30,145 bases of DNA from Clostridia bacterium (GTDB lineage: Bacteria > Bacillota > Clostridia > Christensenellales > CAG-314): the NCBI GenBank assembly GCA_035399325.1, contig DAOPIV010000001.1, positions 1 to 30,145 of the forward strand, given 5' to 3'. Shown piece after piece: positions 20,241 to 27,404 of this stretch (positions are counted from its first letter, which is position 1; each line of letters starts with the position of its first letter). Under the pieces are notes generated by a model that saw only the letters and a program-made list of their open reading frames with translations, was not told the DNA's origin and made no database searches. A program made the translations under genes and the position numbers.

Positions 20241-21539
20241 TTATTTTATCAAACCAAGTTCGATAGCCTGTTTTCTAAGTTCTTCTCTAAAATCGGGATG
20301 TGCAATAGAAATCATAGCTTCCGCTCTTTGTGCGATATTTTTGCCACGTAGGTTCACCATACCGTATTCCGTCGCAATATATTGAACGTCATTACGATGC
20401 AAGCTCACGACTGCGCCGGGCTTCAACTGCGGTACGATTTTACTGGTGGCTACTCTTACGCCTTCAGCGTTTTTGACCATGGCGGTAGAATACATTACCA
20501 TAAATGATTTTCCGCCCTCTGACCTTTGAGAACCGTATGCTGTGTCTGATTGTCCGCCCGTTCCGCTAAACTGTCTGGAACCTATTGACTCCGAGCAGCA
20601 TTGTCCCGTAAGGTCTATTTCGATAGACGAGTTAACGGAAATTTGGTTGTCAAGCTGAGCGAGAGTGAATACGCTGTTTGTATAGCTTGCTTCTCTAAGC
20701 AAAACATCCGGATTGTGGTCAATAAATTTATTAACTTTTTCCGTACCATCGGTAATAGCCATAACAATCTTACCTGTGTCAACTCCCTTTTTGCTGCCGT
20801 CAACTGCACCGCATAAAGCAAGGTCAACCAAACCTTCGCCTAGTAATTCCGTGTGAATGCCCAAATGTTTTTTTGTACGCAAAAGTCTGGAAACAGCGTT
20901 GGGAATTCCTCCGATACCGATTTGCAGACAATCGCCGTCATTGATTTGGTCAGCGATAAGTTTACCGATAATTTCATCTCGTGGGTCTTCGGGAGCTGTT
21001 GGAATTTCGGGAATTTGGTGATCATATTCGATAACATAATCAACATCGTCAAGAGTAAATTCTGTATCGCCGTATGTGTACGGCATATATTTATTTACTT
21101 CGGCAATAATGATTTTTGATGATTTCATCAAAGTTTTTGAATGTAAAGCTGATAATCCCATCGACATTTTTCCATTTTCGTCGGGGCGTGTTGCCGCCAC
21201 TACAAAAATATCAATATCGCCCGAGGCAAGCATCGCAATGCCAGCACGTGACAAATGCGTCGGAACGTAATAAACTTTCGGGTTAGCAACGCCTCTCGTT
21301 GCTTTTGTCATAAATATTTCGTTGGTGGTGAATGTGGGGTTTGGAACATCCAAAAACGGGAATTTTTCCGCCATACGGCAGCACCAAAAATCAACGTTTT
21401 TTGTTGTGTCGTTGATTTTGTGAAATTGCGACATAAAACCGTAGGGAGTGCATTGACCTTCGCTCACGGCTACTTTGTAATTGTCTTTTACCAAAGCTAT
21501 CGCTTGGTCGATTGTAATAAGTTTATCTTTATAATTCAT
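20241..21539 (-). CDS. Acetyl-CoA hydrolase/transferase family (4-hydroxybutyrate CoA-transferase-like) acyl-CoA transferase
   Basis: AEVNKYMPYTYGD, LQIGIGGIP, HLGIHTELL (catalytic Glu region), SIEIDLTGQ, SGTGGQSD, IATEYG, ISIAHPDFREEL. Confidence 0.92.
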   Translation of the reverse strand: MNYKDKLITIDQAIALVKDNYKVAVSEGQCTPYGFMSQFHKINDTTKNVDFWCCRMAEKFPFLDVPNPTFTTNEIFMTKATRGVANPKVYYVPTHLSRAGIAMLASGDIDIFVVAATRPDENGKMSMGLSALHSKTLMKSSKIIIAEVNKYMPYTYGDTEFTLDDVDYVIEYDHQIPEIPTAPEDPRDEIIGKLIADQINDGDCLQIGIGGIPNAVSRLLRTKKHLGIHTELLGEGLVDLALCGAVDGSKKGVDTGKIVMAITDGTEKVNKFIDHNPDVLLREASYTNSVFTLAQLDNQISVNSSIEIDLTGQCCSESIGSRQFSGTGGQSDTAYGSQRSEGGKSFMVMYSTAMVKNAEGVRVATSKIVPQLKPGAVVSLHRNDVQYIATEYGMVNLRGKNIAQRAEAMISIAHPDFREELRKQAIELGLIK

Positions 21540-21554
21540 AACTACGCTCCTTTT

Positions 21555-22079
21555 TTAGAGATTGTAACCCGCTTCAAACGCTTTTTTGATATTGTCTGCG
21601 CCTTTCTTTCCTTCAAACTGGTGCATCAATGCGTTTAATGCGGTATCCTTTGCCACTACGCCGCCTAGTTTTACAAATGCTCCAAACATAACAATGTTTG
21701 CCGAGCGTGCGCTGCCAAGTTCAAGCGCTATTGTGTTTGCCTTGATATATTTGACTGTTACATCGTCACGATTGACTTTTCTGTCAATCAAGTCGCTGTT
21801 AACCAAAATCAAACCGCCTTTCTCCACTTTGCTTTCAAACTTGTCTAAACTCGGAGTATTCATAACGATGAGTATATTTGGTTTTGTGATAAGCGGTGAT
21901 GCAACGGGTTTATCGCTCAATACTACCGAACAGTTCGCAGTACCGCCACGCATTTCAGGACCATAACTCGGAAGCCATGTTACTTCAAAATTTTGTTCCA
22001 TACCGGCGTAAACCATAAATTTACCCAAAGACAAAATACCTTGTCCGCCGAAACCGGCGCAAATAATTTTACTTTCCAT
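21555..22079 (-). CDS. 2-oxoacid:ferredoxin oxidoreductase gamma subunit
   Basis: AGFGGQGIL, PSYGPEMRGGTANCSV, NIVMFGA; TAATG overlap with the beta subunit. Confidence 0.93.
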   Translation of the reverse strand: MESKIICAGFGGQGILSLGKFMVYAGMEQNFEVTWLPSYGPEMRGGTANCSVVLSDKPVASPLITKPNILIVMNTPSLDKFESKVEKGGLILVNSDLIDRKVNRDDVTVKYIKANTIALELGSARSANIVMFGAFVKLGGVVAKDTALNALMHQFEGKKGADNIKKAFEAGYNL

Positions 22080-22822
22080 TATTTGTCACCTCCGATATCT
22101 TTGTAAACACCAAGCGGATAATTAGCAGCCATTTCGTTTTTCACATGTTGCATAGCATCGGGAGGATTCATACCCCAGTTTGTAGGGCATGCAGCCAAGA
22201 TTTCAACCATAGTGAAACCTTTGCCTGCCATTTGGTATTCGAAAGCTTTTTTGATGGCTTTTTTTGTTTTTAGTATATTCGCATAATCGCATACCATAGT
22301 CCGTTCAATATAAGCAGGTCCGCTTTGTGTAGCAAGCATTTCGCACATTTTTATGGGGTTGCCTTGTTTTTTGACATCTCTTCCAAAGGGGCTTGTGCTT
22401 GTTTTTTGTCCGATCAAAGTAGTAGGTGCCATTTGTCCGCCCGTCATTCCATAAATTGCGTTATTGATGAAAATAACGGTAATGTTTTCGCCTCTTAGTC
22501 CTGCGTGTACGATTTCTGCCAAGCCAATACTTGCCAAATCACCGTCGCCTTGATAGGTGAAAACTATTTTATCTGGATGCACTCTTTTTATACCTGTTGC
22601 CACAGCGGGAGCTCTGCCGTGAGCCGCTTGCTGTGAATCACAGTTGAAGAAATTGTAACTAAATACCGAACATCCGACAGAAGCGACTTCCACAGTTTTG
22701 CTTTGAAGTCCAAGTTCGTCCAAAACTTCGGCAACTAATTTTGTAGCTATACCGTGTGAACAACCGGGGCAGAAGCTCAGAGTTGCGTCGGTAAGCATTT
22801 TTGGTTTAGTCCATTTTGGCAT
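22079..22822 (-). CDS. 2-oxoacid:ferredoxin oxidoreductase beta (TPP-binding) subunit, VOR-like
   Basis: FCPGCSHG, SVGC, AAHGRAPAVATG, YQGDGDLASIG, NNAIYGMTGGQMAPTT, CPTNWG. Confidence 0.93.
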   Translation of the reverse strand: MPKWTKPKMLTDATLSFCPGCSHGIATKLVAEVLDELGLQSKTVEVASVGCSVFSYNFFNCDSQQAAHGRAPAVATGIKRVHPDKIVFTYQGDGDLASIGLAEIVHAGLRGENITVIFINNAIYGMTGGQMAPTTLIGQKTSTSPFGRDVKKQGNPIKMCEMLATQSGPAYIERTMVCDYANILKTKKAIKKAFEYQMAGKGFTMVEILAACPTNWGMNPPDAMQHVKNEMAANYPLGVYKDIGGDK

Positions 22823-23886
22823 TATTTGATTACCTCCATAACTTTTTCGACAATGTCTTCAGGTGACATTACCTCTCCGCCCATACGGCATAACAAGTCG
22901 ATGGGTTTTTTGCCGTTAACAGCAAGTCGAACGTCTTCGTTGTATTGACCTGCGGAAAGCTCGACAGTCAAAAATCTTTTTACGTTTGGTTTATTTGCCA
23001 CTTCTTCAAAAACTTTTGTAGCAAACGGGAAAAGCGTAGTGGGTCTTATTAAACCTACTTTTACTCCCTTTTCTCTTAATATAGGAAGAGCGGATTTGCA
23101 AATACGTCCAACACTGCCGTATGCGGTCAATACTATTTCCGCATCGTCGCAGTCTATAGCTTCACAAATAACTTCTTTCTTTTCGATTTCACGATATTTT
23201 GCTTGAAGACGGTAGTTTTGTTCCAAACATTCTTCGCTCTTTAAGTAAAGACTGTTGACAATGCGTCTTTCGTCGCCGTAATGCGTGCCTGTGGTAGCCC
23301 AGTCAAATTTTTCTGGATCATTGGGCTGTTTCATCGGAGGAAGCTCAACGGGTTCCATCAGCTGTCCCATCATACCGTCGCCCAAAATGAAAACGGGAAT
23401 ACGGTATTGTTCCGCTTTGTCCCATGCCATATACATAAGGTCTACAGCTTCTTGGATAGTAGCGGGAGCGTATACAAGCAATTTGTAATCGCCGTGTCCG
23501 CCGCCTTTGACAGCCTGAGCATAGTCGGACTGAGCCGGTTGGATACCGCCCAAACCCGGACCCGCTCTTACCATATTTACAACAACAGCGGGAACTTCCG
23601 CCATTGCCATATAAGAAATGCCTTCTTGTTTTAGCGAAATTCCGGGACTTGATGAGCTTGTCATAGCTCTGCCGCCGGCACCGCCTGCTCCGTATACCAT
23701 ATTGATAGCGGCAACTTCGCTTTCGGCTTGGACAAAGTCTCCGCCTACTTCAAACAATCTCCACGAAAGATATTCGGGTATTTCTGTTTGCGGAGTAATA
23801 GGATAGCCAAAGAAAAATCTGCATCCGCCACGTACAGCCGCTTCGGCGATAGCTTCGTTTCCTTTCATCAAAACTTTTTTAGTCAT
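22822..23886 (-). CDS. 2-oxoacid:ferredoxin oxidoreductase alpha subunit, 3-methyl-2-oxobutanoate dehydrogenase (VorB)-like
   Basis: LMKGNEAIAEAA, GYPITPQTE, QAESEVAAINM, TSSSSPGISLKQE, RAGPGLGGIQPAQSDY, KGGGHGDY. Start at ATG 23886 after GGAGG. Confidence 0.92.
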   Translation of the reverse strand: MTKKVLMKGNEAIAEAAVRGGCRFFFGYPITPQTEIPEYLSWRLFEVGGDFVQAESEVAAINMVYGAGGAGGRAMTSSSSPGISLKQEGISYMAMAEVPAVVVNMVRAGPGLGGIQPAQSDYAQAVKGGGHGDYKLLVYAPATIQEAVDLMYMAWDKAEQYRIPVFILGDGMMGQLMEPVELPPMKQPNDPEKFDWATTGTHYGDERRIVNSLYLKSEECLEQNYRLQAKYREIEKKEVICEAIDCDDAEIVLTAYGSVGRICKSALPILREKGVKVGLIRPTTLFPFATKVFEEVANKPNVKRFLTVELSAGQYNEDVRLAVNGKKPIDLLCRMGGEVMSPEDIVEKVMEVIK

Positions 23887-23888
23887 AC

Positions 23889-24086
23889 CTATTTTACCTC
23901 CAAAACACTGTCGGGACAAATGTAAGCGCACGCAGCGCAAGCGATACATTGCTCTTCGTCTATACATTCAACCGCAAAATATCCGCCTCTGTTGCTTTTT
24001 GCTCCCATTTTCAAGATTTTTTTCGGGCAAGCCGTAACGCATAATCCGCATCCCTTGCACTTTTCAAAATCGATTTGAACTTTCAT
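23889..24086 (-). CDS. 2x[4Fe-4S] ferredoxin-type delta subunit
   Basis: CKGCGLCVTACP and CIACAACAYICPD; start at ATG 24086 after GAGGAG overlapping the ilvE stop. Confidence 0.92.
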   Translation of the reverse strand: MKVQIDFEKCKGCGLCVTACPKKILKMGAKSNRGGYFAVECIDEEQCIACAACAYICPDSVLEVK

Positions 24087-24097
24087 TTGATTTCTCC

Positions 24098-25153
24098 TCA
24101 ATCTATAATGGTTAACCAGTCGTATTTGTCAGGATACTTTCTCGTCTGTATTCCACGCAAACGATCATAAGCTGTTTTTGCAACGGGTCCCACTTTATTG
24201 TTGTTAATAACATACTCTTCGCCTTTGTAGCCGATAACGCCAACCGGCGAAACAGTAGCAGCTGTGCCAACGCCGAACATTTCCGTAAGTCTGCCTTCCT
24301 TTGCAGCCTTTATTATATCATCCACAGCAAAATGTCCTTCGTTTACCGTATAGCCTTCGTCACGCAATATTTTTATGATAGAGTGGCGTGTGATACCACG
24401 CAAAATGCTTCCGTCAAGCTCGGGTGTGCAAACAACTCCGTCCATAACAAACATAACGTTCATTGTGCCTACTTCTTCTATATATTTATGCTCTTCAGCG
24501 TCAAGCCACAAAACCTGGTCGAAACCTTGTTGAGCCGACTCGTACTGAGCAAGCAATCCAGCCGCATAGTTACCCATACATTTAGCTTCGCCAGTACCGC
24601 CTTTTGCCGCTCTAACGTATTTGTCTTCGATATATATACGTGCCGTTTCTTCAGATCCGTGCAAGTATGCGCCGACAGGCGACATAACGATAAACAATTT
24701 GTACTCTCTTGAAACATGGACGCCTAAAGCCACCTCGGATGCAATCATTGTTGGACGCAAATACAAAGCTGTGTTCGGCAGTGTGGGCACCCAGTCTTTT
24801 TCGAGTTTTATCATTTCGATAAGAGCTTCCAAAACGACGTTTTCATCAAACTGAGGCATACACATACGGTATGCGCTGCGGTTCATACGTTTGAAATTGT
24901 CCATAATGCGGAACAAAGTAACCTCGCCCTTGTCATTGCGGAAAGCTTTGCAGCCTTCAAAAATACCTTGACCGTAATGCAGACACATTGTCATCGGAGA
25001 CATGTCAAAATTGCTGTATGGTCTTATTACGGGTTCGCCCCATGCTCCGTTAGCATAATCCATCTCCAACAAGTAGTCGGTATGAAGTTTTCCGAAACCC
25101 AACTTAGAGAAATCGGGCTTTTTTTGCAACTTGTCAGCCTTAATAATTTTCAT
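24098..25153 (-). CDS. ilvE: Branched-chain amino acid aminotransferase (class IV PLP)
   Basis: CLHYGQGIFEGCKAFR, LYLRPTMI, GTGEAKCMGNY (PLP Lys), QVLWLD, EEVGTMN, ILRGITRHS, FGVGTAATVSP. Confidence 0.96.
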   Translation of the reverse strand: MKIIKADKLQKKPDFSKLGFGKLHTDYLLEMDYANGAWGEPVIRPYSNFDMSPMTMCLHYGQGIFEGCKAFRNDKGEVTLFRIMDNFKRMNRSAYRMCMPQFDENVVLEALIEMIKLEKDWVPTLPNTALYLRPTMIASEVALGVHVSREYKLFIVMSPVGAYLHGSEETARIYIEDKYVRAAKGGTGEAKCMGNYAAGLLAQYESAQQGFDQVLWLDAEEHKYIEEVGTMNVMFVMDGVVCTPELDGSILRGITRHSIIKILRDEGYTVNEGHFAVDDIIKAAKEGRLTEMFGVGTAATVSPVGVIGYKGEEYVINNNKVGPVAKTAYDRLRGIQTRKYPDKYDWLTIID

Positions 25154-25246
25154 ATCAGATGTGAAACCTCCACTCTTAATAAATGTAAATATTTTTCGCC
25201 GTTGTTTTTTTTACTTAAAAACGCTTTTTTTCTCGCACAAAACCAC

Positions 25247-25271
25247 AAAAAAAACTACTCTTTACGAGTAG
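25247..25271 (-). terminator. Intrinsic terminator in the ilvE leader (candidate attenuator)
   Basis: Minus strand CTACTC-GTAAA-GAGTAG followed by eight T; about 95 nt upstream of the ilvE ATG. Confidence 0.75.
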
Positions 25272-25277
25272 ATAGTC

Positions 25278-25376
25278 TTAACCCTTATTGTTTGGCAAAA
25301 TAATCTTTCCTGTCACCAAAATCAGCGGAAAGATTATAGAAAATAAAAGCATCAAAATAAAAAGACCCAACGTCAT
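25278..25376 (-). CDS. Unannotated 32-aa Leu/Ile-rich ORF MTLGLFILMLLFSIIFPLILVTGKIILPNNKG (candidate leader peptide of the ilvE-vor operon)
   Basis: GAGGT RBS 6 nt before ATG, directly downstream of a TTGACA/TACCAT promoter; 8 Leu, 6 Ile, 1 Val; followed by a terminator. Confidence 0.65.
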   Translation of the reverse strand: MTLGLFILMLLFSIIFPLILVTGKIILPNNKG

Positions 25377-25394
25377 TTTTTTACCTCGTCTATT

Positions 25395-25423
25395 ATGGTA
25401 TACCAATATTTTTAGTTTGTCAA
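25395..25423 (-). promoter_or_regulatory. Promoter of the leader ORF / ilvE-vor operon
   Basis: TTGACA-17 nt-TACCAT. Confidence 0.8.
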
Positions 25424-25472
25424 TAGACCAAAATGCTTTTTCTTGCCGAATTAAATAAAGCTATTTTTAGTC

Positions 25473-25501
25473 TTGCAATTTTTGTATTTTTGTGCAATAA
25501 T
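25473..25501 (+). promoter_or_regulatory. Promoter of the DUF885-like gene
   Basis: TTGCAA-17 nt-AATAAT with extended TG. Confidence 0.55.
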
Positions 25502-25586
25502 AGCTGAATATATATAGCTTAAGCAATTTTTTAATTTATAATAAAAAATCAATTTTTAGATAATATTTTAATATAAGGAGATTTAT

Positions 25587-27404
25587 ATGAAACAAAAACG
25601 GATTCGGTTACTGTCGCTTTTACTTGTAGCCGTTATGCTTTGCTCGGTAGCCTTGTTCTCAGGCTGCGAAGTGAAAGTTCCCATCACAGAAGAAGATTTT
25701 AATGAATTTTTAAACAATTTGTTTATTGAAAGCGTAACATCAAACACGATAACGCTTCACTACACATTGAAAGACCCGTCTGCTTACGGAATAGAAGATT
25801 TTGAGCCGACGATATATGACCTATCTATGGATGACATAGACGCATATTATCAAGACCTTCAAGATACTTGGCAATATCTTATTTCACTGAGCGACCGCAA
25901 TCTTACTCAAGAGCAAAAGTATATTTTAAAAATGCTCATTAAGTATTACGAATTAAATATTTCCGCCGAAGGACTTGATTACTACGGAACGTATCTCGAC
26001 AGCATAAGCGGCTTGCCCTCCAATATGCCCATAAACTTTGCGGAATACAAATTTTACACCGAAAAAGACGTGCAGGACTATTTAGCATTGTTAAACCAAT
26101 TCCCCACCCTTTTTGAACAGGCATTGGATTACGAAAGAACCCGTATTGAAATGGGGCTTGGGCTGTCCGACAGCACGCTTGACACGGTAATACAGCAATG
26201 CAACGATTTTATTTCTCACATTGACGACAACTACCTAATACTTACTTTCGACAGAAGAATAGATAATCTTGGTTTGTCCAGCGAATTGACAGCCGAATAC
26301 AAAGAACAAAACTATCAAGCTTTCACAACAAAGGTCGTACCAGCATATGAAAATATGGCGGTATCTTTGGAAGAATTCAAAGGTCAATGTGTAAATGACA
26401 AAGGTCTTTGCTATTTTGAAAGAGGAACGGATTATTACCAATATTTGACTTCTTATTACACAGGCACGGATTATACATTAGACGAACTCGTTGATATGTG
26501 TACGGAAAATCTTGTGAAATACAAAAACCAGTTTATAGGCTTATACACAAAAAATCCTACATTATTTGACAAAGTTTTTGACGCTTCGACTTATGGAATA
26601 GACCCCACTACTTATGAAGACAAGGATCGCCCTGAAGCAGCTGTCGTGTTGGAAGCGCTTTGCACTGATATACTCAGCGACCTGCAAATAAAAATGCTGG
26701 ATTATGTTCCCGCTTTATCAGACAGCAGTTTTTCAATATATTTTGTAGAAGAATCTTTGGAAGACTCTTTGTCTCCAGCATTCTATATGATTCCGCCTAT
26801 TGACGACTATAAAAACAATACAATATACGTAAATCTCGGTTCTGTTGATAGTTTAGGTTTGTATTCCACTCTTGCACACGAAGGATACCCGGGACATCTT
26901 TATCAGACGGTATACTTCAACGATACGAACCCGAATCCTATTCGCAACGTTGTGCAGTTTGACGGTTATGTTGAGGGTTGGGCAGTATATATGGAAAATT
27001 ATTCCTACGTTATGTATGACTTTGGTACAAACAACGAAACTATAACCTCAATGGCTTACAGCTATTCTATAATGGCACTGCTTCTTTATAGCCGTGTTGA
27101 CTTAGGTGTAAATTATCAAGGTTGGACAGTTAGCGATACACAAAATTATATCAACGCTTTGGGACTAAACGGAGATATTGCCCAAGACATTATGGATATG
27201 GTTATCTCATCGCCCGCAACATATCTTAAATATTCAATAGGTTATTTGGAAATGATACGGCTTCAAAATTATGCCAAAAAAGAACTTGGCTCATTATTTG
27301 ATATGGTAGAATTTAATACCGTTATTCTTGACATCGGTCCTATGCAATTTAGTATTGTAGAAGAAGCGGTACAGGCATATATCGACTCAAAATTGGCATC
27401 TTAA
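25587..27404 (+). CDS. DUF885-like lipoprotein, putative metallopeptidase-like protein
   Basis: Signal peptide with lipobox VALFSGC; PAFYMIPP, TLAHEGYPGHLYQ, YVEGWAVYME, YLKYSIGYLE motifs; AAGGAG RBS. Confidence 0.8.
   Translation: MKQKRIRLLSLLLVAVMLCSVALFSGCEVKVPITEEDFNEFLNNLFIESVTSNTITLHYTLKDPSAYGIEDFEPTIYDLSMDDIDAYYQDLQDTWQYLISLSDRNLTQEQKYILKMLIKYYELNISAEGLDYYGTYLDSISGLPSNMPINFAEYKFYTEKDVQDYLALLNQFPTLFEQALDYERTRIEMGLGLSDSTLDTVIQQCNDFISHIDDNYLILTFDRRIDNLGLSSELTAEYKEQNYQAFTTKVVPAYENMAVSLEEFKGQCVNDKGLCYFERGTDYYQYLTSYYTGTDYTLDELVDMCTENLVKYKNQFIGLYTKNPTLFDKVFDASTYGIDPTTYEDKDRPEAAVVLEALCTDILSDLQIKMLDYVPALSDSSFSIYFVEESLEDSLSPAFYMIPPIDDYKNNTIYVNLGSVDSLGLYSTLAHEGYPGHLYQTVYFNDTNPNPIRNVVQFDGYVEGWAVYMENYSYVMYDFGTNNETITSMAYSYSIMALLLYSRVDLGVNYQGWTVSDTQNYINALGLNGDIAQDIMDMVISSPATYLKYSIGYLEMIRLQNYAKKELGSLFDMVEFNTVILDIGPMQFSIVEEAVQAYIDSKLAS

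Follow-up and report, generated by a model that had tools for sequence, protein, structure and literature searches.

A conserved leader open reading frame that ends at an intrinsic terminator upstream of an ilvE-ferredoxin-VOR operon in Clostridia: a probable leader-peptide attenuator with a candidate amino-acid-ON logic

Leader-peptide attenuation is the textbook arrangement by which starvation turns biosynthesis on. In the ilvGMEDA, ilvBN and leu leaders of Escherichia coli, a strong 2:3 antiterminator can form, the stop codon of the leader frame lies well upstream, and finished translation leads to termination; the IlvL peptide of this group is 32 residues long. We analyzed a leader on the minus strand of a 30,145-nucleotide stretch of DNA from a Clostridia bacterium (contig DAOPIV010000001.1 of assembly GCA_035399325.1, positions 1 to 30,145; the whole stretch is referred to as the window), which occupies the intergenic stretch between a divergent DUF885 gene and ilvE and precedes an operon of ilvE, a ferredoxin gene and vor genes. 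Its upstream open reading frame (uORF) has the same length as IlvL and, like the frames of the E. coli leaders, is short, close to the promoter and rich in Leu, Ile and Val codons, with a terminator before the first gene and a hydrophobic, non-conserved peptide. Unlike in those leaders, the 2:3 pairing is weak here (the terminator keeps a probability of at least 0.65) and the stop codon adjoins or overlaps the terminator; and whereas their operons are biosynthetic, the canonical biosynthetic genes were not found here. The region is, in our judgment, very probably a leader-peptide attenuator. For its logic, ribosome occlusion of the terminator with an inverted, amino-acid-ON response is the best-supported single reading, ahead of all three rivals considered below, and we place it just short of an even chance.

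Occlusion is known from pyrBI (and pyrE) of E. coli, where the leader frame also reaches the intrinsic terminator, a closely following ribosome blocks the hairpin, and there is no antiterminator. The outcome at pyrBI is set by the closeness of ribosome and polymerase and depends steeply on the distance between stop codon and terminator (PMC4824070). In E. coli, moving the stop from 28 to 5 bp before the terminator lowered termination from about 90% to less than 10%, an effect that was lost upon uncoupling, and slower translation raised termination (PMC4824070). The pyrBI leader senses UTP through polymerase pausing, whereas the signal proposed here is the supply of Leu-, Ile- and Val-tRNA, read through ribosome speed. 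The pyrBI stop codon lies beyond the stem, whereas that of the source genome lies 6 nt before it; and the pyrBI host is enterobacterial, whereas the present one belongs to Bacillota, in which coupling is uncertain, and its operon acts on branched-chain amino acids. Within Bacillota, the tlrB/yxjB, bmrCD and vmlR leaders of Bacillus subtilis resemble this one in that a leader peptide governs an intrinsic terminator. They respond to antibiotic-induced stalling, with an antiterminator or a hairpin that sequesters the Shine-Dalgarno (SD) sequence as the main switch, whereas neither an antibiotic motif nor an antiterminator is evident here and the proposed input is amino acid supply. In tlrB, a NusG-dependent pause gives the ribosome time, and in the authors' model a ribosome near the stop codon disturbs the terminator (PMC6851288). 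The tnaC-tnaA leader of E. coli offers a different likeness, since its leader peptide turns a catabolic operon ON when the amino acid concerned abounds. The tnaC peptide is a conserved arrest peptide that senses free tryptophan, and the stalled ribosome blocks Rho, whereas the peptides here are unconserved and the terminator is intrinsic. An arrest-peptide sensor of the tnaC/speFL type was rejected because no conserved arrest peptide sequence occurs among the lineages, and a T-box riboswitch was rejected because the region 24000-26500 gave no T-box family match in Rfam and the leader is only about 140 nt long. The proposed occlusion attenuator is a variant of known attenuation mechanisms. To our knowledge, an attenuator made of the same parts and wired inversely, in which an intrinsic terminator has no competing antiterminator and the ribosome must complete the leader at the pace of the polymerase, has not been described so far, and a literature search found no paper that joins leader peptide, attenuation, branched-chain amino acid and ferredoxin oxidoreductase.

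The source genome is an uncultured Clostridia/Eubacteriales metagenome-assembled genome, not B. subtilis; it is 72.7% complete, with 1.11 Mb assembled, and its near relatives come from anaerobic-digester metagenomes. Homologous leaders were gathered by searching the genomes of the family and fetching contigs that encode an IlvE 63-72% identical to that of the window. They fall into about eight lineages of this one family (the source clade, G001, L073, L075/L076, L077, G018/L078, G011 and G007). The source genome and three congeners (G001, G002 and G003) provide the four alignable sequences, and leaders more distant than the genus permit no base-by-base alignment. In further IlvE-based scans of genome and metagenome contigs, the close matches gave only the same four leader types. 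Of the further IlvE entries considered, P0003 is 72% identical and has fdx-vor downstream; in P0011, P0014, P0022 and P0023, ilvE stands alone or is linked to Impact_N, and the DNA fetched for them has no fdx-vor call downstream of it. Coordinates are those of the minus strand of the window, on which the leader is read from 25423 to 25247. Its parts are the following.

25395 to 25423, minus strand: sigma-70-type promoter, with TTGACA (25423-25418), a 17-nt spacer and TACCAT (25400-25395); 10 of 12 positions match
25383 to 25387, minus strand: SD sequence GAGGT, which serves the uORF, 6 nt upstream of its ATG and close to the predicted 5' end of the transcript (within a few bases); invariant in four species
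25278 to 25376, minus strand: leader ORF of 32 codons plus TAA (ATG at 25376, TAA at 25280-25278), MTLGLFILMLLFSIIFPLILVTGKIILPNNKG
25353 to 25388, minus strand: P0 helix, rich in A-U and G-U pairs, predicted between the SD sequence with its A-run (25388-25378) and the U-rich codons 5-8 (25363-25353)
25300 to 25337, minus strand: P1 stem, a perfect 11-bp pairing of ATAATCTTTCC (25337-25327) with GGAAAGATTAT (25310-25300) around a 16-nt loop, spanning codons 14-26
25247 to 25271, minus strand: intrinsic terminator, with CTACTC (25271-25266), loop GTAAA, GAGTAG (25260-25255) and T8 (25254-25247)
25154 to 25246, minus strand: spacer between terminator and ilvE, with the ilvE SD sequence GGAGG at 25171-25167

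The predicted transcript start lies near 25389-25387. The promoter is kept in all same-genus leaders and is the sole promoter-like site upstream of ilvE on the minus strand, and the hairpin at 25247-25271 is the only terminator-like site within 24900-25800. This terminator is weak (6 bp; −6.7 kcal/mol for the hairpin alone); those of L073, L075-L078 and G018 have 9-10 bp. No promoter-like site was found between terminator and ilvE in the source genome, L073, L077 or L078, and the operon must therefore be transcribed through this terminator. Several features of a classical attenuator are thus present: a short ORF with an SD sequence near the promoter, whose translation is predicted, a cluster of codons for the amino acids of the operon, and an intrinsic terminator before the first gene. 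A search of the source genome for other leaders composed of a uORF and a terminator returned 20 candidate sites, and an SD sequence, an ATG and an amino-acid bias came together only at this leader. An Rfam scan of 24000-26500 at permissive E-values assigned no family to the leader, the best match being no better than E = 0.07.

The source leader was compared with those of G003 and G002. Over 177 nt, beginning at the −35 element and ending with the T-tract, identity is 95-97% and there are no gaps; it is 80% over the 150 nt upstream of the leader and only 65%, with 18-19 gaps, in the spacer past the terminator, while the synonymous third positions of ilvE differ by 31-33%. The uORF carries 5-6 substitutions in the same comparisons. 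Most of them change the amino acid (5 of 6 versus G003, 4 of 5 versus G002), chiefly by swapping Leu, Phe, Ile or Met codons, and only 2 of the 33 third positions differ. Three to four of the 5-6 changes sit in the loop of P1, and none falls in any stem. Since the changes avoid the stems and exchange similar codons, selection acts both on the RNA and on the kind of codon. Judged by these sequence comparisons, the leader is a real unit under selection. The genome G011 holds this region on two contigs, C16 and C15 (L012 and L023), which are identical in the leader, in ilvE and in 700 nt upstream; the region was either duplicated recently or entered the assembly twice.

The same comparison bears on whether the uORF could instead be a gene in its own right, with its own terminator, that encodes a hydrophobic membrane peptide such as a type I toxin-like or accessory one, ilvE being served by an unrecognised promoter in the spacer. 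The peptides do look like one transmembrane segment followed by basic residues, and A/T-rich TAtAAT-like words stand 4-12 nt before the ilvE SD sequence in most lineages. Such words, however, would put the transcript start on or inside the ilvE SD sequence, and the spacers of the four lineages searched contain no promoter-like site with a −35 element. Synonymous sites have changed less in the uORF than in ilvE, which argues for a function at the RNA level; the peptides are not conserved between lineages, whereas their position and length are; and the uORF stays upstream of ilvE-vor across about eight lineages. We therefore consider a separate small gene very improbable.

The stop codon is separated from the 5' arm of the terminator by only 6 nt, GACTAT (25277-25272), in agreement with an original prediction made from the letters of the window alone. 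This hexamer corresponds to RRCTAYC, the ancestral 5' arm motif of the other lineages, which is common to the terminator starts of all collected leaders. The gap between stop codon and stem is 6 nt in the source clade, 4 nt in L073, 0-1 nt in L078 and G018, −18 nt in L077 and −22 nt in G011, and the stop codon of G007 lies inside the loop of a large hairpin, so that in six of the eight lineages the uORF either runs into the hairpin or ends no more than 6 nt short of its stem. This is unusual because the gap between stop codon and terminator peaks at 10-35 nt for the ordinary genes of the source genome and is 6 nt or less in only 12% of them; a simple binomial calculation for six of eight lineages gives a value of the order of 1e-4, which is overstated, the lineages being related. 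A conserved, selected leader with an unusual layout of stop codon and terminator is established. Classical attenuation requires that a finishing ribosome leave the terminator free, and only G001, L075 and L076 have this arrangement; occlusion requires that the ORF end at or inside the terminator, which is the layout found, although in the source genome the result is sensitive to the assumed edge of the ribosome footprint. Two of the terminators show further structure: that of G007 (L018) consists of two tandem hairpin and T-run units whose copies can pair into one long terminator, and in L073 a second, weaker terminator-like hairpin (L073:1391-1407) lies 8 nt past the first.

Each leader was then folded up to the 3' arm of the terminator, with the ribosome footprint blocked at every codon. 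In the source leader, the terminator keeps a probability of 0.65-0.99 at every stall position, the one exception being a ribosome whose A site contains the stop codon, for which it is 0. Because the 2:3 pairing is weak, a stall at codons 17-20 lowers the probability of the terminator only to 0.65-0.72. In L073, L075-L078 and G018, the terminator probability is 0.99-1.0 for all upstream stalls, and in G011 it is about 0.5 or more, while a ribosome on the last codons removes the terminator in L073, L077, L078, G018 and G011. An antiterminator was not predicted by these folds in seven of the eight lineages. The original prediction had described a 2:3 antiterminator as only weakly formable and had expected a ribosome at the stop codon to cover the terminator arm, and both statements agree with the folds of the source leader. 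With no usable antiterminator, read-through would require a well-timed ribosome.

These results suggest the following sequence of events. One promoter would drive the leader, whose Leu/Ile/Val-rich ORF starts near the 5' end and stops 6 nt before a weak terminator. On RNA free of ribosomes, three serial hairpins would form, namely P0 (in which the SD sequence is hidden), P1 and the terminator, and transcription would stop. Read-through would occur when the lead ribosome stands at the last codons or at the stop codon while the polymerase sits at the U-tract, and a ribosome in that place would cover, or sterically block, the base of the terminator stem. The ribosome would be paced by Leu, Ile and Val codons, which fill 9 of the 14 codon positions that begin at the 5' arm of P1 and end with codon 27. 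With charged tRNAs plentiful, the ribosome would keep up and the operon would be ON; with charged tRNAs scarce, it would lag or stall, the terminator would form, and the operon would be OFF. P1 and the T-rich tract that follows it may pause the polymerase so that the ribosome catches up. In its full form, this proposal describes an amino-acid-ON gate that works without an antiterminator and re-uses occlusion of the pyrBI type to sense charged tRNA, in organisms in which the canonical pathway was not found; we hold it tentatively, as a possibility with somewhat less than an even chance.

The two upstream stems invoked here have a definite structure. P0 has a predicted stability of about −9 kcal/mol and hides both the SD sequence and the AUG in ribosome-free folds. 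All 11 of its pairs are invariant in four species, and its loop (codons 2-4) differs at 7 of 9 bases in G001. P1 is present in both the minimum free energy (MFE) and the centroid fold, just where the original prediction had located a perfect 11-bp stem inside the uORF, and it is extended by an outer 9-bp helix (25350-25342 with 25289-25281). When the leader was dinucleotide-shuffled 3000 times, only 0.23% of the shuffles contained a perfect stem of at least 11 bp. G002 and G003 have the same stems without change, and G001 has an 8-bp version of P1. The T-rich sequence TTATTTT overlaps the 3' arm of P1 and then runs past it, a layout comparable to the pause hairpin and T-rich tract of tlrB; by this likeness, P1 and TTATTTT together are a candidate polymerase pause hairpin (PMC6851288).

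The codon content of the leader points to Leu, Ile and Val as the amino acids concerned. In the source leader, the uORF is the only frame open from the 5' end to the terminator. Each lineage likewise has exactly one frame open from the 5' end to the terminator region, the other frames being full of stop codons, and the chance of one such open frame is 0.02-0.15 per leader. Leu, Ile and Val take 15 of the 32 codons of the source uORF, and Phe takes 4. Over the leaders, these three amino acids make up 41.7% of the uORF frame versus 21.0% of the other two frames (Fisher p = 2e-8), and 24.6% of the proteome; against composition-matched shuffles, the enrichment combined over the leaders has p = 6e-4. 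Runs such as LLLCLLL (L073), IIIYSLL (L077) and IILLV (L078) occur. Beyond their hydrophobic character, the peptides of the lineages have no common sequence, and their position and length are kept. By its sequence, the frame resembles a regulatory leader peptide and not a conserved small protein. In L075 and L076, an ATG or GTG 2-3 nt past the uORF stop codon opens a mini-ORF of 5 codons (MLPYT, MFCYT), whose TAA adjoins the terminator stem; it is speculative that reinitiation after termination might still deliver a ribosome to the terminator there.

A functional leader need not sense Leu, Ile or Val. It could be a fixed or general gate, such as a partial terminator that sets a level, a coupling of the operon to translation capacity, or the target of a protein or small RNA, and in that case the richness of the frame in Leu, Ile and Val would be a side effect of the U-rich RNA and of a peptide drifting free of constraint. 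The enrichment over base composition is marginal in single leaders (P 0.02-0.29), with Leu, Ile and Val making up only 26% of the G018 uORF, and the conservation of nucleotides far exceeds that of the peptide, as the amino-acid-altering changes and the two differing third positions described above indicate. A terminator as weak as that of the source genome is moreover expected to allow some read-through anyway, and the promoter context GGGTATTGAC[TA]TTT, which is shared among leaders, could be an operator. Against a gate of this kind, the enrichment is specific to one frame and recurs where the peptides share no sequence, the operon handles exactly Leu, Ile and Val, the Rfam scan returned no family, and runs such as LLLCLLL and IILLV are like known regulatory codon clusters. 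On this evidence, a fixed or general gate is somewhat unlikely. The promoter word itself stands around the −35 element and is common to L073, L075-L078, L018 and L080, whose leaders have otherwise diverged; its form in the window is GGTCTATTGACA (25418-25430), and its role may be that of an operator or of a preferred setting for the promoter. The source genome has one further promoter with the word, on contig C13. Used as a regulon marker in the source genome, the word gave scattered matches without clear meaning, and the pattern missed the variant of the leader itself.

All collected leaders lie upstream of ilvE-fdx-vorB. In the window, the genes under the control of the leader were assigned from Pfam and NCBIfam matches as follows.

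20241 to 25153, minus strand: controlled operon
25153 to 24098, minus strand: ilvE
24101 to 23889, minus strand: 4Fe-4S ferredoxin (fdx)
about 23889 to 22822, minus strand: vorB
22822 to 22079, minus strand: VOR beta subunit
22079 to 21555, minus strand: VOR gamma subunit
21539 to 20241, minus strand: CoA transferase of the acetyl-CoA hydrolase/transferase family

The gene ilvC was not found in any leader-bearing genome (four that are 73-88% complete and three that are 95% complete), no ilvD match lay above the cut-off in the six leader-bearing genomes tested, and the same held for leuB in the five tested. Because ilvC, ilvD and leuB were not found, it appears that the leader-bearing organisms cannot use the canonical pathway to Leu, Ile and Val. 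This apparent lack fits a catabolic operon that is shut off when these amino acids are in short supply, in keeping with ON-at-sufficiency, and a catabolic role is what we infer for the operon; a pathway running in reverse, from branched fatty acids, is equally compatible with it. In genus g6, ilvC is present in three of five genomes, and ilvE stands alone behind a plain promoter with no leader. Across 47 genomes of genus g11, the IlvE query had no match at E <= 1e-60, and there was no match to the ilvC family. The family as a whole spans full Leu/Ile/Val auxotrophs without the operon, carriers of ilvE-VOR, and members that bear ilvC. Two other genera have an ilvE-fdx-vorB operon too, with unlike leaders and no conserved uORF. 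In genus g18 (L014, L013), a long hairpin, GGAACATATTTTCA...TGAAATGTGTTCC, lies about 100 nt upstream of ilvE and ends at the ilvE SD sequence; in genus g14 (L015, L007, L017), a short conserved RNA segment follows the promoter. These upstream elements may be other regulatory RNAs for ilvE-fdx-vorB.

A number of points weigh against occlusion with amino-acid-ON logic. The first group concerns geometry. At a gap of 6 nt, occlusion is borderline in the source genome: if the 3' edge of the ribosome lies 8 nt past the first base of the A site (+8), the stem is left fully exposed, whereas an edge at +10 covers two of its bases and one at +12 four. A gap no longer than that on which the original prediction relied, or a stop codon inside the hairpin, occurs in the six lineages listed above, whereas the gaps of G001 (11 nt) and L075/L076 (19-20 nt) are longer, and in L075 and L076 the terminator is unaffected by any ribosome position. 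Translation itself is less assured in three lineages (L077, the G018/L078 clade and G007), which have no SD sequence before the uORF and whose ATG lies 8-14 nt past the −10 element (8-9 nt in the G018/L078 clade, represented by L009/L079 and L078, and in G007, represented by L018). Because an SD sequence is lacking and the ATG is so close to the −10 element, these uORFs may be leaderless, nearly leaderless or poorly translated. The marginal enrichment of Leu, Ile and Val in single leaders belongs on this side as well. As for the stems, covariation in P1, a check proposed in the original prediction, is not measurable with the four same-genus sequences, among which no base pair is changed on both sides, and the shuffle controls were uninformative; the TTATTTT of the candidate pause is not kept in G001, L073 or L078.

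Coupling is a further point of this kind. The genes of the source genome are purine-rich (median 55%, with 87% of genes above 50%), and a purine bias has been tied to runaway, uncoupled transcription, which was assigned to Bacillota as a phylum (PMC13323073). With a bias that suggests uncoupling, occlusion would require a programmed pause, for which P1 and its T-rich tract are only a candidate. Terminator stems that start within 5 nt of a stop codon are rare in the source genome, and the two indirect signs on coupling, purine bias and rare near-stop terminators, point in opposite directions. The direction of the operon matters in the same way. On paper the operon is reversible and could turn a branched fatty acid and CO2 into an amino acid; with flux in this reverse direction, ON-at-sufficiency would make no sense and classical logic would be called for. 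A literature search on reductive carboxylation of isobutyrate found nothing usable. The sequence by itself is compatible with either polarity of the response.

A classical polarity, in which starvation turns the operon ON, would depend on an unusual topology, a pairing of the 5' end with the terminator that involves the following segment.

25382 to 25389, minus strand: 5'-terminal segment ACGAGGTA, which pairs with TACTCGT (25270-25264), that is, the terminator 5' arm plus two loop bases; candidate "0:3" antiterminator

In this account, region 0 (the SD segment) is held in P0 by the U-rich codons 5-8; a stall on the Phe, Ile and Leu codons 6-13 would free region 0, and ACGAG(G)UA would pair with UACUCGU and so block termination. 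The operon would make Leu, Ile and Val from branched short-chain acids by way of the CoA transferase, reductive carboxylation by VOR and transamination by IlvE, a salvage route that would be useful because no ilvC, ilvD or leuB turned up in searches of leader-bearing genomes. The complementarity of ACGAG(G)TA (25389-25382) to TACTCGT is real, with a duplex of −6.8 kcal/mol in the source leader that 2.7% of random genomic 12-mers reach (P = 0.027), and the 0:3 duplexes are above chance in the genus (P = 0.027, 0.017 and 0.003). As long as the 3' arm of the terminator has yet to be made, the 0:3 helix belongs to the MFE structure of the source leader with the ribosome stalled at codon 7, 8, 11 or 12; the invariance of the P0 stem beside its diverged loop also speaks for this topology. 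The outer pair of the 0:3 helix is A-U, G-U, G-U and G-C in the four species, although the variable base may precede the transcript start and hence be neutral.

G001 differs from the source leader. The duplex between its 5' end (GGCGAGGUAA) and the terminator arm is worth −10.7 kcal/mol (P = 0.003), stalls at codons 7-13 cover the U-rich partner in P0 and lower the terminator probability to 0.06-0.09, and in these folds the advantage of the antiterminator over the terminator is 1.6-2.2 kcal/mol, while a ribosome at the stop codon leaves the terminator intact (P = 0.84). The complementarity between ribosome-binding site and terminator, which the original prediction had listed and left unused, thus works as a good classical antiterminator in the G001 folds, and, as modelled, the G001 leader follows classical logic with an odd topology. 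The other leaders behave differently. Once the 3' arm is made, the 0:3 helix in the source genome, G002 and G003 is weaker than the terminator by 0.6-4.8 kcal/mol, and the terminator has a probability of 0.79-0.99 at stalls 7-13. In the seven other leaders, no comparable pairing is above chance (P 0.10-0.60) and the terminators ignore upstream stalls. The 0:3 helix would also have to close around a stalled ribosome, and uORFs that enter the terminator (L077, G011 and G007) are unfit for a design in which finished translation must permit termination. On balance, classical polarity is unlikely. The inference of pyrBI-type, amino-acid-ON control in the original prediction is partly supported: it is favoured by the stop placement and by the lack of a predicted antiterminator in seven of eight lineages, and is tempered by the classical pairing of G001 and the borderline 6-nt gap of the source genome.

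If amino-acid-ON occlusion is true, it would show how a bacterium that apparently cannot make Leu, Ile and Val spares them when they are scarce, and does so without a protein regulator. The leader would also be a natural test of programmed coupling between ribosome and polymerase in Bacillota, a phylum whose transcription is thought to run faster than its translation. Knowledge of the polarity would, in addition, tell the direction of the pathway in these organisms of anaerobic digesters, that is, whether branched-chain amino acids are fermented to branched fatty acids or synthesized from them.

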